64,000 bases of DNA from a virus (Duplodnaviria > Caudoviricetes), in the IMG/VR virus record IMGVR_UViG_3300030060_004467, positions 1,335 through 65,334 of that record. One strand, 5' to 3'. Under the pieces are notes generated by a model. That model was not told the DNA's origin. It saw only the letters and a program-made list of their open reading frames with translations, and searched no databases. This document shows positions 1-59,065 of the stretch, in pieces (the first letter of the stretch is position 1; every line of letters begins with the position of its first letter). A program made the position numbers and the translations under genes.

Positions 1-1
1 A

Positions 2-3000
2 AAGGAAGTTAAAGACCCAGAGACTGGTAAGAAGACACGTGTTCCAGCCCGCAGGCGTCGTTTGAGCTCAGCTGTGGCTGCAGCTACAAGAGATGCCGAA
101 GGTCCAATGAAAGATTTTGAAGGCAAGGTTAGAGAAAAGGTATCTAATCAGGCTGCTAAGAATGTCTTCAAAGGCGTCGTCAATATAAACTATGGTGATC
201 CAGGGGCTATGGAGCTGGACATCTACATGGGTAGTAAAGGTGCTGTTCAAAGACCGTCAAGTGCTGTTGATAATGCTTTGAGCGCTATGGAGTCCAGGAC
301 TGGTAGCGTATTTGAATCCAGGGCAGAGGATGCACCGACTCCAGGGAGACCTGAGGGTGAGTTCCAGCAGAGAGACCTGACCAGATTCGGTAGATTTAAG
401 GCCAGGTGGATTCGAAGGCTGCAGGATAAGTACAGCGACATCATGAATCTGCAGGGGGATGTAGAGACATTCTTGGGTAGAGCCGTAAGAGAGGATGAGG
501 ATTTCAAGATGGCCGAGGAGCTCATGTACGGAAAGACGGCGAGCGACCTCAAGAAGCTTGATCAAAAGATCGAAAGGCTAACGGACAACATGAAGGCAAA
601 TGGGGTCAACGTGGGTGAGCTTACCGATTACCTCTACGCACTCCACGCCAAGGAAAGAAACGACGTCATCTTTGAAAGAGACGGTGTTGAGAACGGCAGT
701 GGTATGTCGAATGCAGAGGCCTCGGCAATCCTTGACGGGATCTCTGAGGGCAAAAGGGCTGCCTTGGACAGCGCCCTGAAGATTGTAAGAGAGATTCAGC
801 AGGACACTAGAAACACGATGGTGGAGTTTGGTCTGGAGACAGCTGAGACTGTTGATGCGTGGGAGAGCCTGTTCGAAAACTACGTGCCGCTTTCAGGTAT
901 TGCTACTGACGAGTTCAGCAGTGATAATACCCCCTATCCAACAGGCGGTGCTGGTATGCAGGTACGAGGTCCTATGACCAAGAGGGCTGCTGGTAGAAAG
1001 AGCAAGGCTGATAACCTTGTGGCTCAGATCATTGCGCAGAACTCTGCCGTAAAGATACAAGCCAGAAAGAACGAGGCGCTTGGAACCCTTCACACCCTCA
1101 TTACAAACAATCCAAACCCAGCAATCTGGGAGATCGTTGACGACGCTAAGTTCGGGGACCCGTCAGTTGTACCAGTAAGAATTGGCGGCAGACAGGAGTT
1201 CATTAAGTTCACTGAGCCTCAGCACGCTGAGACGCTCAAGAACATGAACATCCCGAAGACGGTGTGGTTGGCTAAGGTCCTTTCGCCTCTTAACAACTGG
1301 CTAAGACGCTCGTTTACAACACTTAACCCTGAATTTGTAATCTCCAACTTCTCAAGGGACATTCAGTCTGCACTTTTCAATGCGGCTGCGGAGGCTGAGA
1401 TTGAGGGTGGTCAGATACTTGGGGCGCAGGTGATGGGGGATATGGCTCGAATGGTTGGACCAGCAATGAAAGCTCTGCTCAAGGAGACTAATCCAAACTC
1501 GCTTGGGAAGTTGTTCAAAGAAAACCCAATCATTGGTAAGTACTACCAGGATTTCGTCGAGGACGGAGGACAGACTGGGTGGGGGTATCAGAAAACCCTG
1601 CAAGAAATTGCAGCTGACCTTGAGAAATCCACGACAGATAAGTCTAGGGCCCAGGAGATTCTTGGTGCGGTCAAAGAGAATACAATCGATGTGGTTGAGG
1701 GCGTCAACGATGCGTTCGAAAATGCAATTAGGCTCTCCTCATACATTGCCGCAAGAGAGAATGGAGTAAGCAGAGCTAAGGCCGCGCAGTTCGCAAAGAA
1801 CATTACGGTGAACTTTAACAAGCACGGTGAGTACGGTCAAATTGCAAATCAACTCTACCTATTCTTCAATGCGTCAGTTCAAGGTACGGCTAGACTTGGC
1901 AGATCTCTTGTCACTCTTAAACCACCTAAGGCTCCCGACGGATCGTCTCGTGAGTGGTATCAGAGAATCAACACCGCACAGAAGATGGCGGCTGGACTAA
2001 CTGTATTCTCGGCGATGCTTGCCCAGGTGGGTAGAGCTATGTCTGACGAGGATGAGGACGGCACCCTGTACTGGGACAAGATTCCAGATTACGTCAAAGA
2101 GAGAAACCTCGTCGTCATGTTTGACGGGAAGAACTACTTCAAGATACCGCTTCCCTACGGATTCAACATGTTCGCCAATTTGGGGACAGGTATGGTGGAC
2201 CTTGCGGCAGGAGCTAAGTCTTGGGATGAGACGGGATGGTTCTTGGCTAACTCGTTCCTCAGCTCGTTCTCCCCTATCAGCTACGGGCAGTCAAGAGACC
2301 TTTACACCTACGGGACTAAGGCTATAGTGCCAACAGCGTTCAAGCCAGCCGTTGAGGTCGCTATGAATGAGTCGTATTTCGGGGGTCCAGTGTATGCAAA
2401 GCAGTTGCCATTCGGTGCGGCTAAGCCTGAGTCTCACATGTCGTTTAAGTCTCCCAGAATGGTACAGTCCTTTTTTGAACTTATGAACGACGCGACGGGC
2501 GGGTCTGCTCAGGTCCCAGGGGCTGTAGATATTAACCCTGATAAATTCTGGCACATCTTTGACTACTTCGTTGGAGGGGCTGGACAGTTCGTGGGTAGGA
2601 CTGTCTCTACGGCTAGAGAGGCGGTGGTCAAGGCTACCAACGACGAGCTTGAGGTCTCGTTTAACGATATACCTCTCATGCGTAAGATTTACGGTGAGCC
2701 CTCTAAGTATTACGACATGGAGAAGTTTAAGGATCGCGAGGTAGAGATTACTCAGCTTATGAGAGAGGCTAAGGACCCTAAGGCTCGCCGCAATGATCCT
2801 GACAGATATAAAGGTATTGGAAGTCTTGACAGAGCGCTTAAGGCTGTAAATAAGAGACTAAAGCTTATTAGAAAGGCTAAGCGAGACGCTAAGGATATTA
2901 AAGATTACGCCGAAAGGCAAATAAGAATACAGTACCTTATGGACGAAGAGCGCAAGCTTATCATGAGGTTTAACAAAGCATACGACAATGTCAGAAAAGA

Positions 3001-3007
3001 AAACTAA
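2..3007 (+). CDS. Large polyvalent/ejection protein, C-terminal part with LPD38-like domain (5'-truncated)
   Basis: Frame open from position 2. Motifs NPEFVISNFSRD, ITVNFNKHG, YLFFNASVQG and YFKIPLPYG are typical of LPD38-type C-terminal domains of phage polyvalent proteins. Confidence 0.75.
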   Translation, partial: KEVKDPETGKKTRVPARRRRLSSAVAAATRDAEGPMKDFEGKVREKVSNQAAKNVFKGVVNINYGDPGAMELDIYMGSKGAVQRPSSAVDNALSAMESRTGSVFESRAEDAPTPGRPEGEFQQRDLTRFGRFKARWIRRLQDKYSDIMNLQGDVETFLGRAVREDEDFKMAEELMYGKTASDLKKLDQKIERLTDNMKANGVNVGELTDYLYALHAKERNDVIFERDGVENGSGMSNAEASAILDGISEGKRAALDSALKIVREIQQDTRNTMVEFGLETAETVDAWESLFENYVPLSGIATDEFSSDNTPYPTGGAGMQVRGPMTKRAAGRKSKADNLVAQIIAQNSAVKIQARKNEALGTLHTLITNNPNPAIWEIVDDAKFGDPSVVPVRIGGRQEFIKFTEPQHAETLKNMNIPKTVWLAKVLSPLNNWLRRSFTTLNPEFVISNFSRDIQSALFNAAAEAEIEGGQILGAQVMGDMARMVGPAMKALLKETNPNSLGKLFKENPIIGKYYQDFVEDGGQTGWGYQKTLQEIAADLEKSTTDKSRAQEILGAVKENTIDVVEGVNDAFENAIRLSSYIAARENGVSRAKAAQFAKNITVNFNKHGEYGQIANQLYLFFNASVQGTARLGRSLVTLKPPKAPDGSSREWYQRINTAQKMAAGLTVFSAMLAQVGRAMSDEDEDGTLYWDKIPDYVKERNLVVMFDGKNYFKIPLPYGFNMFANLGTGMVDLAAGAKSWDETGWFLANSFLSSFSPISYGQSRDLYTYGTKAIVPTAFKPAVEVAMNESYFGGPVYAKQLPFGAAKPESHMSFKSPRMVQSFFELMNDATGGSAQVPGAVDINPDKFWHIFDYFVGGAGQFVGRTVSTAREAVVKATNDELEVSFNDIPLMRKIYGEPSKYYDMEKFKDREVEITQLMREAKDPKARRNDPDRYKGIGSLDRALKAVNKRLKLIRKAKRDAKDIKDYAERQIRIQYLMDEERKLIMRFNKAYDNVRKEN

Positions 3008-3428
3008 AATCAAAGACACAGGCCTAGGTAAGTGGCTTAAATCAAAAGCACCCAACGTTCTTAGCGTAGTGGGTGATCTATTGCCCGACAGTGGTGGATT
3101 AGGTGTAGTCAAAAATCTCATAGACAAAGACCCTGATGTAGATACGGATGAGGGTATGGCTGCTGTAGAGGCAGAGATACAGTTTCAGAATAATGTTACC
3201 TCTAGGTGGCAGGCGGATATGGGTAGCGATGTAAAGCTGGCTAAGCTTATTAGACCTATTACTTTGATCGCTTTGATGACCATGTTTATGCTTACTATGG
3301 TTGCCGATAGCATGGATAACTGGCCCTTTAACGTGAAAGATTCTTACGTAGATTTGCTTCAGATTTTGATGTTGACCGCATTTGGTGCATACTTCGCAGG
3401 AAGGACCATCGAAAAAGCAAAAAAATGA
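2988..3428 (+). CDS. Putative 3TM-type holin
   Basis: 146 aa with RWQADM..D..LAKLIRP motif, two hydrophobic helices and a GAYFAGRTIEK tail. Confidence 0.65.
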   Translation: MSEKKTKIKDTGLGKWLKSKAPNVLSVVGDLLPDSGGLGVVKNLIDKDPDVDTDEGMAAVEAEIQFQNNVTSRWQADMGSDVKLAKLIRPITLIALMTMFMLTMVADSMDNWPFNVKDSYVDLLQILMLTAFGAYFAGRTIEKAKK

Positions 3429-4135
3429 GACTTATAACAGATGATACGAATCCACCACGTCGAAGGAGACGCAGGAGGTTGACGTCAACTGGCGTGCCTA
3501 TAGCCGATAAAGTTTTCGAAACACCCATGTCTGAAAGAGAAAAACAAGAGATGGCTCTTTCTTTGGCCGCTGCCAATCAGATGAATAGATTGACAGATCC
3601 TATGACTCAACAACCGCTTAGTGAGGATCACCCTCTAGCTAAGGAGTATATTGAGGATAATTTGTTTGCTAGCGTTGGTTACGATGGCGACTCATCTGAG
3701 GATGCATGGTCAGCAGCTACAGTTAGCAACTTGGCAAAAGCTTTTGATCCTACATTTGAAGGCAGCGCACGTCACTCCGATTACATAAGAAGAGGTTTTC
3801 AAAACGAAGGACCTGTAGGGTATAAGTCTGAAAAGGCTAAGAGACGAACTGATTATCAGGTAGGAGACATTCTATTTAAGGGTAGAAAGGACGAAGATGG
3901 CAATCCTATTGGACCACAAACATTTAGTCAGTTTGAAAAAGACGCCGAGGGTAAGGGAAAGTATGGAGATAAGGGTGGATATGGATCTCATTCAGATATT
4001 ATAACTGGCACGGGTGTAGATGAAAAGGGTAAATACTATGAAGTTCAAGGTGGAAATATTGGTGATAAGCTAATGACAAAAAGATTGTACGCTAAAGAAC
4101 TTGCAAAGAGGTACGCTGGTAGACTTACACAATAA
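3425..4135 (+). CDS. DUF2272/CHAP-like putative peptidoglycan hydrolase
   Basis: AWSAATVS, HSDYI, YQVGDILF, SHSDII and VQGGN motifs; directly follows the holin. Confidence 0.55.
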   Translation: MRLITDDTNPPRRRRRRRLTSTGVPIADKVFETPMSEREKQEMALSLAAANQMNRLTDPMTQQPLSEDHPLAKEYIEDNLFASVGYDGDSSEDAWSAATVSNLAKAFDPTFEGSARHSDYIRRGFQNEGPVGYKSEKAKRRTDYQVGDILFKGRKDEDGNPIGPQTFSQFEKDAEGKGKYGDKGGYGSHSDIITGTGVDEKGKYYEVQGGNIGDKLMTKRLYAKELAKRYAGRLTQ

Positions 4136-17084: not shown

Positions 17085-17286
17085 TGTCTTCGATTTGTGT
17101 CCATTTGAAAATAAAGTCTTCGAGGTCATTGGCAAGGTTCTCCATGTCGCTGTGGAGTACCACCTCTTCGCGGTCAACGAGTAGCTTGTGCAACTCCTTG
17201 TATGCACCTGTTTCATTGAGCACATAGCTGATGCGCTCGATAAGTTCTTGCCTCTGCTCGTCGTCGTAGTTGATTGTGTATTTCAT
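17077..17286 (-). CDS. Hypothetical early protein
   Basis: Acidic 69 aa from ATG 17286. Confidence 0.55.
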   Translation of the reverse strand: MKYTINYDDEQRQELIERISYVLNETGAYKELHKLLVDREEVVLHSDMENLANDLEDFIFKWTQIEDNE

Positions 17287-17948
17287 GAGATAAAGTTTAC
17301 GTTTTTGTCCATCCACTCTCTAAGGTCGTCCGCAATGGGTTTGATTTTGATTGGTTCGTCATAGCTGTCTGACCCCTTGGGTTTGGGGATACGGAAAGCG
17401 TGCATCACGTAGTCGTCGATGTCTATGAAGGCGTGGTTGCCCATGTACACACTTTGGATGAACTCCGTGAGTTGATACATATTGCCGTGGTGGTCCGTGT
17501 ACTTGCCTGTGTTGTCTTGCACATCTGATGCTACACGGGCCACCAAGGACATACACAAGGGGGTGTAGTCCCATGCTTGGGAGGCATCGAGTTGGTCCCA
17601 CGTCAGCCACATGTGCTCGGTAGAGTCACTGCGGTTGGACATGTCAACCTCGATGATTCGGAACACCTCGACACTTACGTCGTCGCCGTTCTCTGCCACC
17701 CAGTCGTCGTGGTCCATGTCATGTGGTACACAAGCGTGGTAGTCCTCGTACTGACGAGTCATGGTGACGCAGATGTTTGTGGGGTCTGAGTCGTCAATCT
17801 CTACGCACATCTTGTCCTTGCGGTAGCCGCTGAGGATTTGCTTGATATGTTTGTCTGCAAGCTCCCGCTTGGGGAAGAACTCACAGGTGGTGTCGGAGTA
17901 CCCTTCGAAGAGTCCTGCGACAGCGTGTATTACCGCGTATTGCTTCAT
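17283..17948 (-). CDS. Hypothetical early protein
   Basis: 221 aa from ATG 17948, downstream of a promoter and an AAACTTCAA leader. Confidence 0.65.
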   Translation of the reverse strand: MKQYAVIHAVAGLFEGYSDTTCEFFPKRELADKHIKQILSGYRKDKMCVEIDDSDPTNICVTMTRQYEDYHACVPHDMDHDDWVAENGDDVSVEVFRIIEVDMSNRSDSTEHMWLTWDQLDASQAWDYTPLCMSLVARVASDVQDNTGKYTDHHGNMYQLTEFIQSVYMGNHAFIDIDDYVMHAFRIPKPKGSDSYDEPIKIKPIADDLREWMDKNVNFIS

Positions 17949-17982
17949 GGTTATTGAATTGAAGTTTGTAAAAGTCTCGACA

Positions 17983-18040
17983 CAAAGATACGGAATTGAT
18001 GTGGACAATTCCAAATTTTTGTTGAAAAGATTTGTTAACG
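17983..18040 (-). promoter_or_regulatory. Bacteroidota sigma-A-type early promoter with 30-bp upstream repeat
   Basis: Minus strand TTTG-N21-TATCTTTG; 18011-18040 matches 19937-19966 at 29/30. Confidence 0.7.
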
Positions 18041-18049
18041 GGTTGGTTA

Positions 18050-18121
18050 GAAGGGAGGTTGGGAGTTGAACACAACTGCCATCTGCCAAAACTCAGATGT
18101 ACGCACCGACTGCGCTCCCTT
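18050..18121 (-). ncRNA. Non-canonical tRNA-like element A
   Basis: Acceptor AAGGGAG/CTCCCTT; D-like CGCA-gtcgg-TGCG; anticodon-like CATCTG-agttttgg-CAGATG; T-like GTTGTG-TTCAACT-CCCAAC. Confidence 0.55.
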
Positions 18122-18127
18122 GAAGAA

Positions 18128-18196
18128 GGTGGGGGGATGGACTGACGTTTCAGTCCGTTGCATCCAATCGAATTGCATCCCGAAAGGCGTCCCCCC
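18128..18196 (-). ncRNA. Non-canonical tRNA-like element B
   Basis: Closing stem GGGGGGA/TCCCCCC followed by ACC; internal hairpins including GGACTGA-aacg-TCAGTCC and TGCA...TGCA; no TTC loop. Confidence 0.4.
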
Positions 18197-18213
18197 TATG
18201 GTCAAACTTCAAA

Positions 18214-18423
18214 CTAACCAATACCGCTTACGATGTCCATCGCTTTGGTCATCGCGTAAGTTCGTTTTTGCATCCCTGTACCTTCAAGCTGAGGTGACGG
18301 GAGATTCACAAATGTAGTGAATGCGCCCTCATCATCCAAACGATCGATTTTATAGTTATCCTCACCCCTCATAATCGCATCTGCCATAGCGTTGGTGTGG
18401 TAAATCCTTTCTTGAAGTGTCAT
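18214..18423 (-). CDS. Hypothetical early protein
   Basis: 69 aa with AAACTTCAA leader. Confidence 0.55.
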   Translation of the reverse strand: MTLQERIYHTNAMADAIMRGEDNYKIDRLDDEGAFTTFVNLPSPQLEGTGMQKRTYAMTKAMDIVSGIG

Positions 18424-18560
18424 TTCTCTTGTTGTTTTGAAGTTTGATATTTGTCGTATGCTTTTTCCACGGCAGTGTTGAGAGCCTCTGCCTGTGCTCT
18501 GTCGATAGCCTGTCCCTGCATACGGGATAGCTTGACAATTACTTCGATGATGTTATCCAT
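18420..18560 (-). CDS. Small hypothetical protein (46 aa, not in ORF track)
   Basis: MDNIIEVIVKLSRMQGQAIDRAQAEALN...; coupled overlaps. Confidence 0.45.
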   Translation of the reverse strand: MDNIIEVIVKLSRMQGQAIDRAQAEALNTAVEKAYDKYQTSKQQEK

Positions 18561-18735
18561 GGCTATCTCTTTCTTTTGGTGTTAATTCAAAGTTTACGTC
18601 CCATGTGGCCTCGCAGTCTTCGCACTCATAATCGTGCTCTATCTGGACGTATCCGTTGTTGGTATACCCTACTTCTTGTGAGCCTAAGTATACTCCTTGA
18701 CCGCCACACTTGTGGCACTTATCGTAATCGTTCAT
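18553..18735 (-). CDS. Zinc-ribbon protein
   Basis: CHKC and CEDC pairs in 60 aa. Confidence 0.6.
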   Translation of the reverse strand: MNDYDKCHKCGGQGVYLGSQEVGYTNNGYVQIEHDYECEDCEATWDVNFELTPKERDSHG

Positions 18736-18878
18736 TTTAAATCAAATTGTGTGTTTTTGAAGGCCTCTTGAAGGCGAGCCTTATTGCCGTGGTCTGCTTT
18801 GAACCACGCCTCGATGAGGGCTTTCTCGAAACTCCCGCAGTTCTGAGAGCGTATGTTCAGTCGTTCGTATTGTGTCAT
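18732..18878 (-). CDS. Small hypothetical protein
   Basis: GSFEKALIEAWFKADHGNKARL motif; ATG at 18878. Confidence 0.55.
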   Translation of the reverse strand: MTQYERLNIRSQNCGSFEKALIEAWFKADHGNKARLQEAFKNTQFDLK

Positions 18879-19087
18879 TTGTCTTTTGTTTGGGTTTTGA
18901 GCGGTGGAAGTGTGCTCCACCATACAATCTCTTCGTCGTGGATGCGGAACTCGTGGCAAGCCCCGAGGTCGTTGTTCCACACCTCAATCCATACGCCGTG
19001 GTCGTCAGGAGCACCCATTACGTGGGATGCGTAGTGACCCGCATCTTGCAGTGCTTTGACTGCTGATTCGCATTGTTCTTGTGTCAT
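18875..19087 (-). CDS. Hypothetical early protein
   Basis: 70 aa with 4-nt overlaps. Confidence 0.55.
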   Translation of the reverse strand: MTQEQCESAVKALQDAGHYASHVMGAPDDHGVWIEVWNNDLGACHEFRIHDEEIVWWSTLPPLKTQTKDK

Positions 19088-19398
19088 AGGTCAATGATTA
19101 CGCCCTTCTCTTCGAGGGCTTTGATGATGTAGTCAGGGAGTTCGAAGCATCCATCGTACCCTGTGAGGCGTACACTTCCGTCGTCGTCGTGCTCGGTTTC
19201 GAGCACACCCTCTGCATAGAAGCGGTCGCCTCCTGATTCGAGGTCGTAGGTCTCATACCATCCGCCGTAGCGGTGGTCAGGGTCGATAGCCACCTCGGTG
19301 TCCATCTCTACGTTCTTCGCGGCGTCAACGTCTACGTCGTAGGCCGTCCGCATTGACACGAAGGGTAGTGTGTGTTTGAAGGAGTGTGTGAATTTCAT
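19084..19398 (-). CDS. Acidic hypothetical early protein
   Basis: 104 aa with LTGYDGCFELP motif. Confidence 0.6.
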   Translation of the reverse strand: MKFTHSFKHTLPFVSMRTAYDVDVDAAKNVEMDTEVAIDPDHRYGGWYETYDLESGGDRFYAEGVLETEHDDDGSVRLTGYDGCFELPDYIIKALEEKGVIIDL

Positions 19399-19646
19399 TC
19401 TGAAAATAGTTTGTTCTCGGTTGCTATCGCTTCTGTGGCGTGGTCATCCAAGACGTTGATGATTTGCTGAACTGTGTCGGGGCTAACGTTGGGTGCATTA
19501 GCGATGAGAGAGGCAAAGCCCTGCACATCCTTTGGCACCATTTGTGCGGCTCGATTGAGCACATCGAGGTTCTTACCAAAGTGGAAGTCGTTGAGGTATA
19601 GCACCGCCGCACCTACGGGACGTGAGAAAAAATTATCTTTTACCAT
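19395..19646 (-). CDS. Hypothetical early protein
   Basis: 83 aa with AAACTTCAA leader. Confidence 0.55.
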   Translation of the reverse strand: MVKDNFFSRPVGAAVLYLNDFHFGKNLDVLNRAAQMVPKDVQGFASLIANAPNVSPDTVQQIINVLDDHATEAIATENKLFSE

Positions 19647-19673
19647 TGTATTGGATTTGAAGTTTAATGTTTA

Positions 19674-19886
19674 TTATCTGAGGAGGTCATCAAGTTGCTT
19701 CTCAAGTCGCACGATTGCCTCGTCTGCACGGCGTGAAATGTCGTCCTGTTCCTTGATTGCTTTCTTGGTTGCCTCGATAAGAGCCTTGCGCTCCTCGGTG
19801 AATGTGATGAATGACTGCTCTACTTGGTGGAGCGAATCGCATACGAGTGTGCCTTTGGCAGAGGCTCTCAACTTTGAAGTGTCCAT
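19674..19886 (-). CDS. Coiled-coil early protein
   Basis: 70 aa from ATG 19886 after a promoter and leader motif. Confidence 0.55.
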   Translation of the reverse strand: MDTSKLRASAKGTLVCDSLHQVEQSFITFTEERKALIEATKKAIKEQDDISRRADEAIVRLEKQLDDLLR

Positions 19887-19909
19887 TGTATTGGGTTTGA
19901 AGTTTGGTG

Positions 19910-19966
19910 TAAAGATATAGGATTTTGTGGATGAATCCAAATTTCTGTTGAAAAGATTTGTTAACG
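19910..19966 (-). promoter_or_regulatory. Early promoter with 30-bp upstream repeat
   Basis: TTTG-N20-TATCTTTA plus the repeat shared with 18011-18040. Confidence 0.65.
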
Positions 19967-19967
19967 C

Positions 19968-20132
19968 TTAGTAATCACGGGTCGTGATATTGAATTCACG
20001 TAGGTCGATGTATATGTCCTCGTCCCACGCAGCCTCGATAAGGCGTAAAGCCTCCTTGTCGTCCGTGTATGTGAAGTTCTCGTAGGCGAGAATTTTCTCC
20101 TCTGCGTTTAACTCTCTGAATGGATTAAACAT
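19968..20132 (-). CDS. Small acidic protein (54 aa, not in ORF track)
   Basis: MFNPFRELNAEEKILAYENFTYTDDKEALRLIEAAWDEDIYIDLREFNITTRDY; starts 25 nt after the HHR1 cleavage site. Confidence 0.6.
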   Translation of the reverse strand: MFNPFRELNAEEKILAYENFTYTDDKEALRLIEAAWDEDIYIDLREFNITTRDY

Positions 20133-20151
20133 AGCTTGAAGTTTGAAGTTT

Positions 20152-20201
20152 GATACAGACCCCCGAAGGGGTTTCGTCCAATCAGGACTCGTCAGTGTAC
20201 C
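20152..20201 (-). ncRNA. Type I hammerhead ribozyme HHR1
   Basis: gguaca-CUGACGA-gucc(ugauu)ggac-GAAA-cccc(uucg)gggg-UC/uguauc; predicted cleavage after C at 20158. Confidence 0.93.
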
Positions 20202-20368
20202 TTGATGATTTCTGTTAAAGCACCTTCGATGCTGTCTTGCAGGTCAAATGTGTCTTGTGTGTACTCTCCGTTCACCTCGCGAACGTCGTCGCTCAGGAGT
20301 TCAGGCGCGTTGTCCAACAGGTATTCTGTGACGAGGATAGCCACGTCTTTGATGTCATTCGTTGTCAT
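20192..20368 (-). CDS. Small acidic protein (58 aa, not in ORF track) flanked by HHR2 and HHR1
   Basis: MTTNDIKDVAILVTEYLLDNAPELLSDDVREVNGEYTQDTFDLQDSIEGALTEIIKVH; its stop TGA is the UGA of the HHR1 core. Confidence 0.65.
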   Translation of the reverse strand: MTTNDIKDVAILVTEYLLDNAPELLSDDVREVNGEYTQDTFDLQDSIEGALTEIIKVH

Positions 20369-20389
20369 TGTATGTAGTTTTTGAAGTTT

Positions 20390-20439
20390 GACACAGACGC
20401 CTCACGGCGTTTCGCGCACTCAGCGCTCGTCAGTGTGCC
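20390..20439 (-). ncRNA. Type I hammerhead ribozyme HHR2
   Basis: ggcaca-CUGACGA-gcgc(ugagu)gcgc-GAAA-cgcc(guga)ggcg-UC/uguguc; predicted cleavage after 20396. Confidence 0.93.
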
Positions 20440-20441
20440 TG

Positions 20442-20621
20442 TCAGATAGGGTCGAAGTACCTGCGAATCTCCTGCTCCGCACGCTCGTCCTCTGCGTCGT
20501 CAGCCCCGATGAGGTCAGCCAACGTCAGGTGTGCGTCCGTGAAGTGGGTGGACACGATGTCCTGCACGATGGTGGTGAGGGCTTGTACGCGCCCCTCGTG
20601 CGCTTGCTTGGAAGTAGCCAT
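20442..20621 (-). CDS. Small acidic early protein (59 aa)
   Basis: MATSKQAHEG...RYFDPI from ATG 20621; stops 2 nt before HHR2 stem I. Confidence 0.6.
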   Translation of the reverse strand: MATSKQAHEGRVQALTTIVQDIVSTHFTDAHLTLADLIGADDAEDERAEQEIRRYFDPI

Positions 20622-20641
20622 TGTGTTGAAGTTTGATGGTC

Positions 20642-20685
20642 GCAAGATACGACCGAATTGTGGAAAAAACAAGTCTGTCTGTTAA
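20642..20685 (-). promoter_or_regulatory. Possible weaker early promoter
   Basis: TTG...TATCTTGC with upstream TTAAC; imperfect match to TAnnTTTG. Confidence 0.35.
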
Positions 20686-20704
20686 GTCGCTGTGACTCAG
20701 GGAA

Positions 20705-21403
20705 TTACAAGATGTCGTCGGCAGTCACGCCCTCGTCCATCATATCCATATTCACGGCACGTAACATATCCATCACGTCCGTGTACCCTTGCTCGCGCAG
20801 TACCGCGTAGGGTGTGGGTGCTACGTAGTCCGCAGGGTGTTGCGCTTTCGCCTTTGGCGCGGGTGCGTCAACCTCCGTGCGTGTGCCGAATGGCGATGCC
20901 GCCGTTGGCTTGTTGTCGCACACGACCTCGGTCTTGCGAACGTTACGCTTGGCGCTCGCTCGGTTGCTCAGGCGTTGTGCCTGTGCCTCCAACTTGTCGT
21001 TCTTGGTCTTGCGCTTGGTCTTCGTGCGCTTGGGTGCGGGCTTCTTTGGGTCGGTCAGCACCAACCCGCCCAACTCGCGCTCCAACTGCTCGACTGCCTT
21101 GCGCTCAACCTCCGTGATGTCGCTCACGGGGGTGTACGTGTTGGCCGTTTGACAGGCGTCCACGATGTCGAACATCTGCTCCATCGTCAGCCCGTACTGC
21201 TTGCACAGCACGTCCGCACGGGACTGCTTCGCAGTCGTGGCTTTGGCTTTGCGTTTGGGCTTGGCCGTCTTGGGCTTCGCGCTCTTGCGCTTGGCCGCTT
21301 GCTCCTGTGCGAACTTAGCCTTGTTAGCGGCTCTGCGCTCAGCTCGTGTGTACTTGCGCCCTGTCTCGGGGCAGTGTGTGGGGGTGTAGGTCTTTGCAGA
21401 CAT
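20705..21403 (-). CDS. Lys/Ala/Arg-rich (histone H1-like) early protein
   Basis: 232 aa from ATG 21403; AKRKSAKPKTAKPKRKAK and KKPAPKRTKTKRKTK tracts; acidic C-terminus. Confidence 0.65.
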   Translation of the reverse strand: MSAKTYTPTHCPETGRKYTRAERRAANKAKFAQEQAAKRKSAKPKTAKPKRKAKATTAKQSRADVLCKQYGLTMEQMFDIVDACQTANTYTPVSDITEVERKAVEQLERELGGLVLTDPKKPAPKRTKTKRKTKNDKLEAQAQRLSNRASAKRNVRKTEVVCDNKPTAASPFGTRTEVDAPAPKAKAQHPADYVAPTPYAVLREQGYTDVMDMLRAVNMDMMDEGVTADDIL

Positions 21404-21443
21404 AGGTAAAAAGTTTGAAGTTTTGGACTGCGCTTCGTGCGCT

Positions 21444-21493
21444 GACACAGACCCCCGTAGGGGTTTCGGCTACTCAAGCCTCGTCAGTGTGCC
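21444..21493 (-). ncRNA. Type I hammerhead ribozyme HHR3
   Basis: ggcaca-CUGACGA-ggcu(ugagu)agcc-GAAA-cccc(uacg)gggg-UC/uguguc; predicted cleavage after 21450. Confidence 0.93.
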
Positions 21494-21499
21494 TGTGCG

Positions 21500-21673
21500 T
21501 CACTTGCTCATTCGCTCCCGCGCCTCTTCGAGCAGGGCTTGGTGCTCCATCTCCGTGTGCGAGCCGTGAATCAAGGCGTTCAGAATCTCGTCGTCGGTCA
21601 TGGTGCGCAAGGCAAAGTAGTTCGCAGACCCGCTCGTGCGGATGCTCTCGGTGGTTGGTGCTGTGGTATTCAT
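21500..21673 (-). CDS. Small protein (57 aa, not in ORF track) flanked by HHR4 and HHR3
   Basis: MNTTAPTTESIRTSGSANYFALRTMTDDEILNALIHGSHTEMEHQALLEEARERMSK; AAACTTCAA leader. Confidence 0.6.
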   Translation of the reverse strand: MNTTAPTTESIRTSGSANYFALRTMTDDEILNALIHGSHTEMEHQALLEEARERMSK

Positions 21674-21694
21674 AGTGCTTTGTGTTTGAAGTTT

Positions 21695-21744
21695 GACACA
21701 GACGCCTCACGGCGTTTCGTCCATTAAGGACTCGTCAGTGTGCC
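21695..21744 (-). ncRNA. Type I hammerhead ribozyme HHR4
   Basis: ggcaca-CUGACGA-gucc(uuaau)ggac-GAAA-cgcc(guga)ggcg-UC/uguguc; predicted cleavage after 21701. Confidence 0.93.
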
Positions 21745-21979: not shown

Positions 21980-22574
21980 GTCAGCAATGACGGGGGATGC
22001 AGAGCGAAATTTATACGAGGTTATGTTCATTGTGTGTCCCCGTGATAGGGGATGCAATGTTGTAGTAAAGGTATAGGTGATGTATTGTCCTACGTTCACG
22101 TAGAGCTACCTACCTGCGGTGACCTGATGCGATGATGGAAGTAACGATGCGTAAGTCACTGAGGAACAAGCGATTGCAATCTCAGAAGTAAATCTCCATA
22201 CTATGGCAGAATCAAGGGAGGGGGGTTTGGAAATGTAATTTCCAAAAGATTTGCGTCCCTACATATATATATATAATCCCCCCTATGCGTAGTTCTGATC
22301 GTTTTTTTCGACCCAAACCCGAAAAAACCGCCGATATCCTCAAAAATTTTCACGCGGTATTTTTTGATTGACTCCAATCTACCCATCATAACTGTCTGAT
22401 TTAAAGGTGAAAGCGGTATTTAACCTCTAGTAAGGCTTGAATATTGACATTTAAAGATTTCTGTTATAACTTTGCTATCAAATCAAGATCAAAACAGTAT
22501 AAATAGTAGGGTGTGTGTACACACATTACACCATCCGATCTAGATTTAACTGTTAAATACAGGATAGCTGTGTC
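21980..22574. other. Non-coding region between divergent arms (candidate terminus/origin/packaging region)
   Basis: About 600 nt with no credible ORF, a (TA)n run at about 22265-22275, G/C tracts and the palindrome TGTGTGTACACACA at 22512-22525. Confidence 0.45.
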
Positions 22575-31034: not shown

Positions 31035-31108
31035 GCACCTGTAGCTCAACTGGATAGAGCAGCACACTTCTAATGTGCAGGTTCGGGGTTCGAGTCCCTG
31101 CAGGTGTA
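31035..31108 (+). tRNA. tRNA-Arg (anticodon TCT)
   Basis: GCACCTG/CAGGTGT acceptor, GCTC/GAGC D arm, GCACA-CTTCTAA-TGTGC anticodon arm, GGTTCGAGTCC T loop; CCA not encoded. Confidence 0.92.
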
Positions 31109-31121
31109 CAAATTAAATAAA

Positions 31122-53270: not shown

Positions 53271-54641
53271 ATGAAGACTTTTGCATTTAAAAACTCTCAG
53301 AAATACTGGTCTACTAGGTACTCGTTTACGGCTAGAAACTACGCCACCTTAGATCGTGATATGTTCACATCCCCTGGGGGGAGGGAGATATATAAGCATG
53401 GTCCAGATGCCGATAAGAATACATTTTTTGGACAAGCCTACGGCTCAAGTATAAACTTTACGTTTAACAACGATCCAGGTCAAAATAAGATATACAAAAA
53501 CATATCATTGGAGGGATCTTTTGGTGATGGTGGATCGAATGTGTCTGGTTCTTTTAAGGCTAATGACAGCACCGATTCCACACAGGCTAGACCATCGGTT
53601 ATATCTTCATGGAAAGAAAAGGGTGCTCATATACACGCAACCCTATCTAGCTCTGTAAAAAGCGGTAGGGCTAACATAGAGCCTGTGGGTGTGTTTCGTA
53701 GAGCTCATCAGATATTTCACCCCAAAAATGTAGATGCTTTAAAAGATTTAATTAATGGAGAGCCAGATAATCCAACACTAGATGCTTTTGGTCCATTTGC
53801 ATTCCCTATGGGTATGTATGAATCATTTAAAAATGCTGATATAGATTACAACGGTATTTTTGATATAGATAATCTGTGGAAAAGTCCTTTTGAATCCAGA
53901 TATCTGTTCTTTGAGATTGATTTCTTTCCAGGATATAGAGGATCTTCAAAAAAAGTAAAGTATATCATAGAGGGGTCTGGCAGTGGTGCTATTCAGGATT
54001 TTTATGGACAAAATTTTGCATCAGTAAATGACCTGTTCGTAAGTGACAAAAAGATTTGTCAGTATGCATTTAACAAGGGGACACTAGATTTCAGGAAAAA
54101 AACCTACAATTCAGATACTGGTCAGTATGATGTAGATATCGACTCTGCTCTATCGGTAGATGGAACTTCAAAGAAGGGTGGTATTCTTGTTTACACCAAT
54201 GCAGATATACAAACAGGATCAGCGGACGTTTTTGGTGATTTTGATTTTGATGGCAATGTGGGCGTCAGTGACCTGTTGCTACTGCTGACTGCTTACGGAT
54301 ATGGTGAAGGTGAGTCCCTATTTGATGCGATTTTTGACTCCAATGATGACGGAAATATAGGTGTGTCAGACATTCTTGCGTTTTTATCCAATTTTGGTCA
54401 ACAGGACCTTAATGTGGAAGAGAGGGATATATCTGATTTTGTTAATGATTTAAATAGTCTTGAGGATATATTGAGTGAAAGTCTCATTGTATATGCCGTA
54501 ACCCCTACCTCGGTAAATGGAGAGGCTGCTAGAGGTAACTATGCTGATGTTAGTCTTTCGTTTTCAAAAGACAATCCAAATTTCGAGCTCGATGTTGTAA
54601 ATCTTGATTATGAACCCACCCAGCTCGATCATAGCAGATAA
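53271..54641 (+). CDS. Tail protein resembling the C-terminal part of the stabilisation protein, with dockerin-like insert
   Basis: W.TRYSF, KIYKNISLEG and RGNYA motifs; two DxDxDGxVGVSD loops. Confidence 0.6.
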   Translation: MKTFAFKNSQKYWSTRYSFTARNYATLDRDMFTSPGGREIYKHGPDADKNTFFGQAYGSSINFTFNNDPGQNKIYKNISLEGSFGDGGSNVSGSFKANDSTDSTQARPSVISSWKEKGAHIHATLSSSVKSGRANIEPVGVFRRAHQIFHPKNVDALKDLINGEPDNPTLDAFGPFAFPMGMYESFKNADIDYNGIFDIDNLWKSPFESRYLFFEIDFFPGYRGSSKKVKYIIEGSGSGAIQDFYGQNFASVNDLFVSDKKICQYAFNKGTLDFRKKTYNSDTGQYDVDIDSALSVDGTSKKGGILVYTNADIQTGSADVFGDFDFDGNVGVSDLLLLLTAYGYGEGESLFDAIFDSNDDGNIGVSDILAFLSNFGQQDLNVEERDISDFVNDLNSLEDILSESLIVYAVTPTSVNGEAARGNYADVSLSFSKDNPNFELDVVNLDYEPTQLDHSR

Positions 54642-54659: not shown

Positions 54660-55571
54660 ATGAGGATAACTAGTAATCCAAATCGCGAGGACAAACGCAA
54701 AACATATCAAGACGGTACTGGATTAATGAATCTCGTTAATCCAGGCGAGGGTCAGACTGGGCTCTTTGGTTACATCTCTCCACTGTTAGGTATTGCAGGT
54801 GAGGTTCAGATGAGGAATATGCCTAAGCTAGAGGCCGAGGCACTTGCTTCAGATGTAGATAGTAAAAAAAGATTACTTGAGAGGGCTGCGGTTCAGCCTG
54901 AGGTAAGCAGGCTGGGTCTAGAGAATTTACAAAGAAATATAGAGAGATCACAGGAGGAGGATGCATCTAGTCTATCGACTTTGATTGAGCAGGGCATGAG
55001 CCCGCAGGACGCTGCAAATTTTGTTGCCAATAGAGCAAATCAGAGAGATCAACAGCTTACTGCAGCTCTTATGCAGGATGATGCTCAAAGTAATGCCAGG
55101 GCTTTAGCGCAGCAGCAAGCTACAGACGCTGCATTCGCTAATCTTGAGCAGTCTAAGTTGGCTGCTGAGCAATTTGATATACTTGGTCAGAAGCAGGCTA
55201 ACATTGATTCTTTGTTTGCATTTGGAACTCAGGCTGCAAATATCGAGGGTCTAATAAATCCACAAGCAGCTAGTAGTGATAATGATGAAGAAAATACAAG
55301 GAGTGCAAAGCTGTCCGAGAGAGGTTACAAACATGGAGGTATCACACCTGGGCCTCATGATCACGACGTACTCAACCTAATAATTATGCACGAGGACGGA
55401 ACTCCCGCCCTTGACAGTGACGGTGATGAGATGCATGTTACTGGTAGTGAGGCTATTATACCAGATTACATCTTTGAGGAACTTATGGCAGCGGCTAAGT
55501 CTGGCGATAAAAACGCTCTGTTCGAAATCTTTATGGATGAGATTGCTACGGAGAAAAGATTTCAAGTATAA
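54660..55571 (+). CDS. Putative internal virion (ejection) protein
   Basis: Gln/Ala-rich coil with GGITPGPHDH and TGSEAII motifs. Confidence 0.55.
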   Translation: MRITSNPNREDKRKTYQDGTGLMNLVNPGEGQTGLFGYISPLLGIAGEVQMRNMPKLEAEALASDVDSKKRLLERAAVQPEVSRLGLENLQRNIERSQEEDASSLSTLIEQGMSPQDAANFVANRANQRDQQLTAALMQDDAQSNARALAQQQATDAAFANLEQSKLAAEQFDILGQKQANIDSLFAFGTQAANIEGLINPQAASSDNDEENTRSAKLSERGYKHGGITPGPHDHDVLNLIIMHEDGTPALDSDGDEMHVTGSEAIIPDYIFEELMAAAKSGDKNALFEIFMDEIATEKRFQV

Positions 55572-58500
55572 TGGCAAATGGATTTGACCCAAGAAGCCAG
55601 TTCTATAGAGCTCAGGCATCTCAGGTAGCACAGAAAAGGCAGGCTCTAAACTTCGCTAAACAGCGTCAAGACGCTGAGGAAGCAACAAAGATAAAGAATG
55701 TAAATACGCTATCTGGCTTTCAGGCGTCTCAAATACCTGAGGGTCCTATGCGTGAGATATACGAGGAGCGTATCAGAGATGCTCAGGCGTATATGAATAG
55801 TGCTGGAGAATATGGTGGTGAAAACTATAGCGCTCTTGAGGCGGCTAATAAAATAGCTGGTCTGACAACCATGTTTAACAAGATGTCAGCTCATAATATG
55901 GGTGCGGTGGCAGAGGCTCAAGCGGCATACAAAAAGGGTGCTTTTGAGGTGGCTGATGACAGAGAGAGAATTAATCCTTATGGCGATCCTAGCGGCAACG
56001 CCGTATACTCCAACAACTCACCCGATGGGTACAGGTCTAGAGTGCAAAGACACAATAATTACTTTCAGTGGACTGGGGATTACGATGCAAACGGTGATCC
56101 GATAGGATATATGCTCGATGATGAGGGTAATCCAACTGGTGACCCTATGAGCATTTTTAAAATGCAGGGATATGCAAATCCAGCGTCTTTTGAGTCAGAT
56201 ACGGTTATTGAGGACATACCAGCACTTGTAGATATAGCAGAGGATCCAGTGCTTCAAAGAAGGATAAGCACCATTGCATCCGCACCTTCAACATTAAAAG
56301 AACTAAAAAACATAACAGACCCCGTTGAGAGACACAATTTTGTAATCAATAAAGTTTTACAGGATTACATGGGGCAGGGTAAGCAAGATGTAGAATTTCG
56401 TGAGTCTATCATTACACAGCTTCAAAGGCAGGGTAAAGAGTTTAAGCCAGAGCATATAGACAATTTCATAAACAACCCACTATCCGATCCTGAGCTTCTA
56501 TCAGATATCTTAGATCCCGCATCTGCTGTTCTTGCTGACCTTACATATACAGCACCAACCGTTTCTAGCCCGTTTAAAGGCACTCTTGAGGTTCAGGGTA
56601 GGGGCGGTTCTGCTGCAGATGCTCCGTATACGGTGAGAACAGATAGACTAGCAGATCCTGTTACTATTAGTGGCGGAGAAAACCTTCCAGGTGAATCTAC
56701 CAGCTACACAATTAACTCAGTAGGTATTGATCCAACCAATGGCGATATTCTTATACCGATTACCTATGAGGAGGAGGGTGAACCTATTTTGGACGCTTTG
56801 ACTGGGGCACAGACTGGCACCAGGACTAGCACTAGTCAACAGACACTTAGGATTCCAGGTGGTGACGTGAATCAGGCAGACCCATTGGCTCTAGAGGCAT
56901 TTGAAAACTTACCCGTTGGTCAGCAGGCCTTGATTCAGCAACGAGTAAATGAAAGAAATGTTAGATCAGATGCTGAGATTCAAGCTGAAATGGAGCGTCA
57001 GCAGCAAGATCAAATGGATCGTGAGCAACAATCAACTCAGCCACCAGCATCTACTGAAGCTGAGCAACAGGCTCAGGGTGCAACGGCTGCTGCAACCACT
57101 CAACAGGCTCAGGGTGCAACGGCTGCTGCAACCACTCAACAGGCTCAGGACACTCCAGCCGCTGATGAGACACTTGATATTCAGCCTATTGACCAGCAGG
57201 AGGAGGAGTTTGACGACGATCAGCCAGCGCAGGGTGCTGTGCCTCAGTCATTGAACAACGCCCCAGGTACAACTACAACAACATCCCCTGATGGCGGTCA
57301 GCTTGTATCTGTATCAAGCCTCCCTCAGAATCAGATAGATCTAGCAGCCAGGGCTACTGAGGTTAATCAAAGGTTCCCAGTCGGAGGACAATCTAGAACC
57401 CCTGAAATTGCAGCCGCCATAGAAACACTAAGAGACCCATCAGCTACAGATGGCGCAAGATCACGAGCTGAGTCAGTGCTTCAGGCAGAGGTTGATCGTG
57501 GTGATAGGATGGAAGATGTTACTAACACAGAAAGTGTTCCGTCCAACGCGGTAAACTATAGAGGTGGTGTTTATGTGCCCTCAAGTCAGGCCACTCAAAA
57601 CCCTGTGTCTATACCAGGGAGGGATGGCAGCTATGAATATTTAGGAGATAGAGTTACAACACCTAATCCTAATGAACAGCTATACAGACCTATGACTGCA
57701 GCTCAAAGAGAGCGCGGTGAAACAGGTATGGCGGGCGTATCCGTGCCTACATTTGGTCAAGATGTAAGTAGGGCTGAAGCTGCCATTACTGAGGCTATAG
57801 GAAACGCTGCTAGAGACTTAGGATTGGGATCGCTTGATGATAGGGCTGACGAAATAGGCAGAAGTATAGCTAATACATTGTTTGGGCCTAGTGATTTCAA
57901 AAGACAAACTGGTGAGTTTGTAGATGACGTTGCTGCTGGTGCATCTGAATTAGCGTCAGATCTTAGAGACAACACTGGCATGAATTTGCGTAGGGCTTAT
58001 GACGCAGTTGTAGATGCAGCACAGACAGGCGGTAGCGCCCTTATGGACTTTCTTAGGGGCTCAGGGCCTACTCAGGAAGAGGTTGATAGACAGAGATTTG
58101 ATGCTGCAAGAGAGCAACAGAGGCGAGATGAGGAGGCTGCTAGAGCACCATTACCAGAAACAGAACCTGTAGCTATTGATCCACCGACTCCATCAAGGGG
58201 TGCAGATACGCCCACTCCCATTACGGTACAGCCTCAATCGCCTAGACAGGCACAGGCTGAGGAGCAGCTTAGAGAGAGGCTTGAGGCAATAGAGTCAGAG
58301 CAGACACCAGAGTATATAAATGAACTTCAGAATCTAGTCCCAGAGATGAATCTAGTTTCTACATTTGAAGGTTACGCATCTGAAGGTCCAACTGCTACTA
58401 GGGCTAATGTTCCTAAGGGTGATGATGGTAAGCCACATAATAATAGCGGATACACTATAGGTGGATTAGATATATCAGAGCACTCCCTTGATGATCTTCC

Positions 58501-59032: not shown

Positions 59033-59065
59033 GTGCTCTAATCTTATAATTAAGTATATTTGCGT

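Follow-up and report, generated by a model that had tools for sequence, protein, structure and literature searches.

A conserved tRNA-shaped non-coding cassette, with a leader complementary to early-gene start regions, in the early region of a Caudoviricetes phage

Phage tRNA genes are usually read as helpers of codon usage or as replacements for tRNAs cut by defence nucleases. Elsewhere, tRNA-like units are found joined to another functional RNA, as in MALAT1/mascRNA, the MEN-beta 3′ elements and the tRNA-like-pre-miRNA transcripts of MHV68; units of the mascRNA type are thought to be cleavage signals for tRNA-processing enzymes, are not aminoacylated and have an anticodon loop that is not conserved. 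In the engineered tRNA scaffold, cargo RNA takes the place of the anticodon arm, and the other three arms (acceptor, D and T) see to it that the RNA folds, is processed and is stable. Small RNAs that act by base-pairing can derive from mRNA 3′ ends, and early shutoff in T4 is protein-based (RegA, RegB). Bacterial and phage Y RNAs of the YrlA type hold a tRNA-like domain with T-arm, D-arm and acceptor-like features, and a 7-bp acceptor makes Mycobacterium smegmatis YrlA a substrate of RNase P that also receives CCA (PMC4201824). Here we describe a cassette in a 64,000-nt stretch of phage DNA (the window; positions 1,335 to 65,334 of IMG/VR record IMGVR_UViG_3300030060_004467). It occupies the block 18221→18043 and is composed of a leader, a G-rich hairpin (Unit B), a linker and a tRNA-like element (Unit A). 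Viral tRNA-like non-coding RNA is known; unexpected here is the companion leader, which is complementary to a motif in the start regions of early genes.

The genes at ~7.9–22.4 kb lie on the minus strand, and the cassette is therefore read from 18221 to 18043; positions below are those of the window, on the minus strand unless marked (+). The orientation of the T loop, G-U cells in the alignments and the difference between sense and antisense folds also point to the minus strand. Re-read in this direction, the elements listed in an earlier note on this DNA (Unit A, Unit B and a bracketing inverted repeat) were all found where it had placed them. Folded as a single sequence the cassette gives z = −2.29 for the minus strand, a fold equalled by 4 of 200 shuffles, and z = −3.44 for the plus strand. 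This is only moderately unusual and the case consequently rests on comparison with relatives. The protein of the downstream gene (17283–17948) has relatives in 36 IMG/VR loci at 49–80% identity, and blastn detects the element in 31 of the 38 loci compared. The first 20 nt of Unit A, its 5′ scaffold, are found unchanged in 33 IMG/VR stretches and in at least 109 metagenome stretches. Taken across these relatives, the comparison shows the block to be a conserved, structured, strand-specific non-coding cassette of the early region.

Unit A (18051–18121, with a C following at 18050) is supported by conservation and covariation. It comprises an acceptor stem of 7 bp, AAGGGAG/CTCCCTT (18121–18115/18057–18051), a D-like arm, CGCA-GTCGG-TGCG (18114–18102), a replaceable arm at the anticodon position (18099–18080) with a 6-bp stem, CATCTG/CAGATG, and an 8-nt loop, AGTTTTGG, and a T arm, GTTGTG-TTCAACT-CCCAAC (18076–18058). 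In alignment A1, which holds 28 distinct Unit A sequences, 92.7% of the cells in the four helices are paired (versus 43–55% when partners are slid), 8 pairs have changed on both sides and the covariation score was matched by 0 of 500 shuffles. Compensatory changes are seen in all four helices. The acceptor pairs are intact in 196 of 196 cells (7 pairs in 28 sequences). Within A1 the acceptor is invariant save for one G-U, which is compatible with the minus strand only, and a divergent copy at L033:939–1002 (37.6 bits with model R1) carries AAAGACG/CGUCUUU, which amounts to three compensatory pairs. The T stem exists in two covarying forms and has a pyrimidine-C mismatch beside the pair that closes the T loop (27 of 28 sequences; 157 of 161 copies in a larger set). 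Variation is limited to two loops, the D loop also taking inserts (L007, L015). The covariation check on homologues that had been proposed thus supports the pairing of Unit A and, as set out below, that of Unit B; it shows Unit A to be a conserved tRNA-shaped scaffold made of an acceptor, a compact D arm with its GG and a canonical T loop.

Unit A shares with canonical tRNA (RF00005) the 7-bp acceptor, the 7-nt UUCRANY T loop (TTCAACT in the window, TTCGAAT in most relatives), the GG of the D loop and, ahead of the T arm, a short variable region. It differs in that the D stem follows the acceptor directly, with no two-base linker (positions 8–9), in the length of the D loop (GTCGG, 5 nt, compared with 7–11 nt in tRNA), in the mismatched T stem of 6 bp and in having no conserved anticodon arm, so the description of its geometry as non-canonical holds. 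It is also missed by ARAGORN and by the Rfam tRNA model even at E ≤ 5–10. ARAGORN called no tRNA in the cassette region of the window or in the arrays of such units at 38 loci, and no tmRNA in the window; with introns allowed it made 2 inconsistent calls on the arrays, and at a lowered threshold 73, all of which we regard as noise. Rfam 15 gave no match to the cassette at gathering thresholds or in a scan of 17900–18450 at E ≤ 10, and its tRNA model matched none of the array units of 10 loci at E ≤ 5. These scans support the suggestion, made earlier, that this is an undescribed structured non-coding RNA. The sole tRNA of the phage, tRNA-Arg(tct) at 31035–31109 (+) (ARAGORN, Rfam 15), has no encoded CCA end either, and the missing CCA at Unit A therefore says nothing.

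The arm at the anticodon position is where most of the variation lies. Its segment occurs in 62 distinct versions among the 161 copies, with lengths of 3–84 nt including flanks of 2–3 nt, and is missing altogether from 17 of them; several versions are stems of 4–5 bp capped by UACG, UUCG, GAAA or GAGA (UNCG/GNRA tetraloops). The loop seen in the window is present in only 4 of the 161 copies, and its closest variants are AGTATTGG, AGTTAGG and AGTTGTAGG. Within a family of arms the stems covary and the hairpins are maintained. One 34-nt insert was found in two contexts: in L042 and L046 it is part of the arm of Unit A, whereas in L008/L043 it forms a separate hairpin behind Unit A. Direct repeats occur inside some inserts (L007, L008, L009, L015), and we found no motif common to the inserts. 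A decoding tRNA has an anticodon arm with a 5-bp stem, a 7-nt loop, U33 and a conserved anticodon; here the window loop has 8 nt and the U33 context is present in none of the 62 arm versions. With an arm that is so readily exchanged, reduced to a capped stem or lost, Unit A does not decode, nor can it be a decoy that depends on a particular loop. Judged by its aligned copies, it is shown to have given up decoding.

Unit B (18131–18196) has an outer G-rich stem, GGGGGGA/TCCCCCC (18196–18190/18137–18131), with ACC next to it (18130–18128). The stem surrounds optional hairpins (18189–18157) and a conserved apical hairpin, GGACTGAAACGTCAGTCC, of the form GGAC-TGAAACGTCA-GTCC (18156–18139). Among 27 distinct sequences the apical tip UGAAACGUCA is exact in 25, and the apical stem is paired in 88.9% of cells, versus 20–52% when slid; 27 cells are double changes. 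For 25 of the 27 sequences the sense strand gives a better fold than the antisense strand. The outer stem covaries as well (GGGGGGA/UCCCCCC, GAGGGG/CCCCUC, GAGGAGG/CCUCCUC, GGGGGUG/CACCCCC), and the whole unit, flanks included, measures 34–81 nt in relatives. The ACC after the stem is common, not constant; many relatives have ACC plus TTTTT, and a scan of the window for intrinsic terminators did not call Unit B. The G-rich stem, the ACC and the inner hairpins had thus been described correctly, but a cloverleaf-sized tRNA-like unit is not what they form: Unit B is a long hairpin with optional side hairpins. The alignment shows it to be a conserved G-rich hairpin with a UGAAACGUCA tip, and not tRNA-like.

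A pyrimidine-rich linker, ACCTTCTTC (18122–18130; ACCTTTTTC in many relatives), leads from Unit B to Unit A. The last bases of the linker and the first two of Unit A make up CTTCAA, which is able to pair with the TTGAAG in the leader. The cassette is enclosed by the stem TTGGTTAG/CTAACCAA (18221–18214/18050–18043; inverted repeat I4). This bracketing repeat is present as reported, but is a feature of one lineage: its 3′ half CTAACCAA occurs only in the window and its two closest relative groups, and a CTAACC tail follows Unit A in 3 of the 33 listed Unit A versions. The other half, TTGGTTAG, overlaps the stop codon of the upstream open reading frame (ORF) 18214–18423.

Unit B is preceded by a conserved leader sequence, TGGTTRRTTGAAGTTTGACCA, that is absent from the earlier note. 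In the window the leader reads TGGTTAGTTTGAAGTTTGACCA (18199–18220) and holds the stop codon TAG (18216–18214) of the upstream ORF. Across 27 distinct sequences 18 of its 22 positions are invariant and one more is nearly so, and all 28 distinct arrays begin TGGTTRR(T)TTGAAGTTTGACCA. The leader core, TTTGAAGTTTGA (18213–18202), is the reverse complement, exact over 10–11 nt, of CAAACTTCAA, a 5′ untranslated region (5′ UTR) motif of at least 8 early genes. Eight exact copies of CAAACTTCAA lie in the sense of the early genes (17959–21695) and end 3–13 nt upstream of ATGs; the motif is found at small early genes and is absent from the starts of middle and late genes. The leader is the sole inverted copy in the window (one minus-strand TTGAAGTTTG versus 8 exact plus-strand copies), and no shuffle reached the observed number of motif matches. 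The closest target-like partner is the CAAACTTCAA copy in the 5′ UTR of the downstream gene (17959–17968; ATG at 17948), with a predicted duplex of −17.9 kcal/mol. For ten motif-bearing early start regions the predicted duplexes with the leader range from −14.7 to −21.6 kcal/mol, compared with a median of −9.0 over 75 regions. The seed is predicted to be unpaired with a probability of 0.60, versus 0.39 for the cassette as a whole.

Variant lineages preserve this relationship. In L027 and L030 the motif is CAAACATCAA, in 3–4 sense copies, with one inverted copy at the leader, TTGATGTTTGA; in L033 it is CACTCAAA, in 3 sense copies, with one inverted copy at the leader, TTTGAGTGA. L133, L136 and L152 have the leader TTGAAGTTGA, and their UTRs read TCAACTTCAA in 3 of 6, 1 of 1 and 1 of 2 motif copies, respectively. 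Contig L034/L042 has neither leader nor Unit B upstream of Unit A, and no shared CAAACTTCAA motif was found before its ORFs. The comparison shows that the leader mirrors the early start-region motif and that both change together in three variant lineages.

Two other explanations of these sequences were rejected. Pairing of the UTR motif with 16S rRNA, with the leader as an rRNA mimic, gave unremarkable best duplexes (−9 to −13 kcal/mol), and 22 Bacteroidota 16S genes held no site with ≤ 1 mismatch to TTGAAGTTTG. Nor is the leader conserved for coding, because the frame ending GGT-TRR does not belong to a real ORF in most loci, and other ORFs end at the TGA of TTGAAG. Separately, a near-identical block lies upstream of three early genes (~20160–20185, 20395–20420 and 21700–21725). 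It consists of CGAAAC, a short GC hairpin with a GTGA or TTCG-type loop and then TCTGTRTCAAACTTCAA; two further early genes have other hairpins ahead of the motif. The stable tetraloops suggest that these blocks may have a role at the RNA level.

The early ORF upstream of the cassette (18214–18423; 69 aa, no family) ends inside the leader. Unrelated upstream ORFs of several kinds likewise end within it, either at a TGA inside TTGAAG or at the TRR of GGTTRR. Of 90 distinct upstream contexts of 200 nt, 2 contain a host-type promoter pattern, no more than the background rate, and no promoter is conserved. From the position of these stop codons and the lack of a conserved promoter we conclude that the cassette most likely lies in, and is transcribed with, the untranslated 3′ portion of whichever early gene comes before it, so that the leader would be part of the RNA. 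A metatranscriptome contig of 351 nt from a relative runs from the upstream gene through the cassette into the start of the next gene, and one of 151 nt from another study covers Unit A.

For the host-type pattern we used TTG-N17-23-TAnnTTTG (−7 box TAnnTTTG), which we take to be the Bacteroidota consensus from the literature on Bacteroidetes promoters. Two minus-strand sites fit it, 21963–21933 and 18015–17983. The second, TTTG-N21-TATCTTTG (17983–18015), is promoter-like and stands between the cassette and the next gene; a sub-threshold FopS-like match of Rfam at 17937–18024 (+) (19.6 bits against a gathering threshold of 56, E = 1.6) overlaps this site and its hairpin, and a C/D-box snoRNA-like match in the region is also sub-threshold (E = 1.6). 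The first forms, with 22444–22474 (+), a divergent pair of Bacteroidota-type promoter-like sites (TTGACA ... TAnnTTTG) at the border between the leftward early genes and the rightward genes.

Taken together, a replaced anticodon arm and a leader complementary to the motif make the cassette look like a device for RNA processing and regulation, and not like a decoding tRNA. The reading we prefer, with a probability of about 0.45, is that the cassette is co-transcribed with the early genes, that Unit A serves as a signal for both processing and stability and that the RNA made of leader and hairpin pairs with early start regions. Host tRNA-maturation enzymes would recognize the acceptor/T-arm/elbow half of Unit A, RNase P acting at its 5′ side and RNase Z and the CCA-adding enzyme at its 3′ side. 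The cassette would in this way be excised from the polycistronic early RNA, and excision would set the 3′ end of the leader-Unit B RNA and yield stable small RNAs. The released leader-hairpin RNA could then anneal to the start motif that early mRNAs share, acting either in trans or, on the next gene, in cis, and would tune or shut off early translation. A processing signal for the early transcript was among the possibilities first raised, and the anatomy fits it, with acceptor, T arm and D-loop GG kept and the rest varying; recognition by RNase P and RNase Z is the part that we infer. A more ambitious version, which we consider rather doubtful, is an RNA-only switch of early genes: a seed at an mRNA 3′ end, freed and stabilized by a tRNA-shaped module through host enzymes, would anneal to start regions and shut or re-time early translation, and the module would double as a display scaffold for anti-host hairpins.

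The same logic is proposed here as for mascRNA, MEN-beta and MHV68: by analogy, a tRNA-like unit whose top half is kept and whose anticodon loop is not conserved would act on a second, attached RNA. Those, however, are nuclear RNAs of animals or of an animal virus, whereas the cassette is from a bacterial phage, its processing is predicted and it has no sequence relation to them (no Rfam match). From mRNA 3′-end small RNAs the arrangement would take a seed just after a stop codon and a stable hairpin, the seed being complementary to its putative targets and co-varying with them, and with T4 shutoff it would share the targeting of a common early start-region signal; the difference is that pairing is predicted here. 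The engineered scaffold resembles Unit A in the replacement of its anticodon arm, but is a laboratory design, while Unit A is natural and has many natural inserts. YrlA is likewise a non-coding RNA found in phages as well, with features of T arm, D arm and acceptor. However, the ends of YrlA form a Ro60-binding stem and its acceptor-like stem is closed by a loop, whereas the cassette ends at the acceptor (PMC4201824). Moreover, the phage has no Ro60 (TROVE) gene among 68 ORFs and the cassette gave no Rfam match. In a full-text literature search we found no account of a cassette like this one (PMC10690425 reports tRNA-like candidates among 10,006 viral RNAs from IMG/VR; its supplementary tables were not covered), and no RNA acting on a phage's own early start regions via one shared motif. 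A preprint on phi14:2 reports that in a Cellulophaga phage early intergenic RNAs to which no function is assigned are abundant; such RNAs thus occur in the Cellulophaga host group, with no relation to the cassette implied.

Several points weigh against the processing-and-pairing reading. Discrete RNAs, cleavage sites and CCA ends are predictions, and the contigs from RNA libraries are assembled and may stem from carried-over DNA. Acceptance by RNase P and RNase Z is assumed for an element that has no two-base linker, a 5-nt D loop and a mismatched 6-bp T stem. Co-variation of leader and motif would also be expected if both bound one DNA-binding factor, and the antisense strand of the motif resembles the host −7 promoter box. 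Pairing does not explain the invariant GACCA of the leader or the invariant tip of Unit B, and part of the seed can pair with the linker. The near-identity of the scaffold could partly reflect the spread of a module by recombination. Lastly, the 34-nt insert in two contexts hints at functions of the inserts that a pure processing-signal model ignores.

Two rival explanations survive best, although we regard both as unlikely. The first holds that Unit A and the further tRNA-like units are a display platform that expresses, folds and stabilizes exchangeable cargo hairpins. Function would then reside in the cargos, which might be, for instance, decoys or sponges that act on host defence or on RNA-binding proteins. 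Inserts do sit at precisely the two loops that tolerate cargo, anticodon and D; stems covary and hairpins persist within insert families, the shared 34-nt insert is used both inside the arm and outside it, and some inserts have direct repeats. The arrays, too, vary in size among close relatives (161–698 nt), with one T-loop unit in 12, two in 14 and three in 2, and such turnover would be typical of accessory or counter-defence regions. Against this, the arm is absent from 17 copies and is a tetraloop-capped stub in many others, so that Unit A is kept even where there is no cargo; the cargos have no common motif, and a single one recurs, in only two contexts.

The second, about as improbable as the first, acts at the level of DNA. 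Here CAAACTTCAA and its inverted copy would be sites for one protein (a promoter element, an operator or another site), the leader would be the promoter or regulatory site of the non-coding RNA and not an RNA seed, and Units A and B would be structured RNA without an antisense function. A shared protein would explain the co-variation of leader and motif equally well. On the leader strand the motif reads GAAGTTTG, near the −7 box TAnnTTTG that we assume for Bacteroidota, and Unit B begins 7 nt later. However, there is no −33 element at the right distance from the leader motif, the 8 early-gene copies read in the same way would all fire antisense, and host-type promoters with both boxes exist elsewhere (21963–21933, 18015–17983). 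The position of the motif, 3–13 nt from the ATG and in at least one case within the preceding ORF (18437–18446 in ORF 18420–18560), fits an mRNA signal.

The remaining two have little in their favour. A decoy for anticodon nucleases or mimic of tRNA-Lys, as first proposed, has for it the UUUU in the window loop and the existence of phage tRNAs that evade such nucleases, but is very improbable: it fails because the UUU loop is not conserved, being the least conserved part of the element and confined to 4 of 161 copies, in an arm that is hypervariable, tetraloop-capped or absent, with an 8-nt loop lacking a U33-type context and no match to tRNA models. Least probable of all are decaying tRNA pseudogenes or chance structure, to which the non-canonical geometry and the silence of the tRNA finder would point, since neutral decay is contradicted by a fixed scaffold (near-invariant, its 20-mer exact in the viral and metagenome stretches given above, although identity of the protein next to it falls to 49%), by compensation in each of the four helices, by a specific conserved mismatch and by variation only in two loops.

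The arrays of relatives contain more than the two units described above. Leader-plus-Unit B and Unit A are separable: L033 has a solitary Unit A in the gap between two ORFs, 9 nt past a stop codon and 28 nt ahead of the next ATG. Further array units have canonical T arms (e.g. GGTGGTTCGACTCCACC) and long middles, and reach only ~14 bits with the Unit A model. The arrays of L016, L017, L020 and L034 hold an extra conserved unit of ~125 nt without a T loop, which starts ATTACCTTGTCAGGTGTGGTGGGG and ends GACGGCTCGGAAAGACGAGC and had no Rfam match. In L002, L004, L006, L009 and others a long, near-perfect hairpin of 20 bp, of two sequence types, separates the array from the next gene and sits immediately ahead of the downstream UTR motif; its only Rfam match was sub-threshold, to a plastid 3′ UTR stem-loop (E = 0.18). 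L023 has two sub-threshold type I hammerhead-like matches (309–358 and 1134–1204; 22.8 and 24.9 bits against a gathering threshold of 34). One of them lies directly upstream of a tRNA-like gene (1239–1309) for which ARAGORN gives a 2-base anticodon and Rfam 38.8 bits.

A blastn search of 50,697 cultured phage records gave no match to the cassette, only two chance hits of 25 nt (E = 2). In 185,579 species genomes the pattern of T arm plus acceptor had 29 matches, none of which ARAGORN calls a tRNA. This is at or below the number expected by chance, which we ourselves estimate at ~70 for 17 fixed bases, and the derivation of Unit A from the 3′ half of a host tRNA, or as a prophage site, was rejected on these grounds. 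The sole real relative among the 29 is on a 12-kb contig binned as a Parvibaculum metagenome-assembled genome (MAG), where L081:6860–6920 is a clear relative of Unit A (36.8 bits); this contig is probably a phage of the cassette lineage that was binned into an alphaproteobacterial MAG. A weak match to the Unit A model (20 bits) was noted on a contig of a rumen Bacteroidaceae MAG, at L088:6785–6888. It is tRNA-like: the D and T arms are canonical, while the anticodon loop is enlarged by ~40 bases. It is possibly an unrelated instance of the same design.

The genome that carries the cassette is one contig of 65.3 kb, and its DNA is present in marine metagenome runs. It represents an uncultivated marine lineage, of which relatives are common in coastal metagenomes and for which marine Flavobacteriia are the likely hosts. 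Its large terminase has its best matches (41–48% identity) in phages of Flavobacterium, Cellulophaga and Tenacibaculum. Pfam and PHROG scans of the ORFs identified a primase-helicase, an exonuclease, terminase, portal and virion proteins; a Pfam scan of 68 ORFs was negative for RNA polymerase, RNA ligase, Ro60 and nucleotidyltransferase. A giant ORF (59060–64000 plus 1–3007, (+)) leaves the end of the contig and resumes at its start, and would encode ~3,000 aa if the genome is circularly permuted. Its C-terminal part matches PHROG profiles of 2,800–3,900 positions and carries an LPD38 (polyvalent protein) domain; it has no RNA polymerase signature and no sequence match in the PDB. Hairpin promoters served by an N4-type virion RNA polymerase were considered and dropped, as LPD38 is the only domain of the giant ORF and no RNA polymerase is found among the 68 ORFs. 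Also encoded are a crAss-type muzzle protein C-terminal domain (53271–54641, (+)) and a 1,153-aa protein of the virion region that ends in a Pesticin-type lysozyme domain (55571–59032, (+)).

The cassette is frequent in marine metagenomes, as the metagenome stretches cited above indicate, but neither Rfam nor the cultured phage records contain it. It would be nature's equivalent of the tRNA scaffold designed in the laboratory, and offers dozens of natural inserts. A strongly constrained tRNA shape without a decoding arm points to a non-translational use of the host tRNA-processing machinery. The host group largely lacks initiation led by a Shine-Dalgarno sequence, and a leader that mirrors, and co-evolves with, a start-region signal would be a simple RNA solution to the control of early genes.

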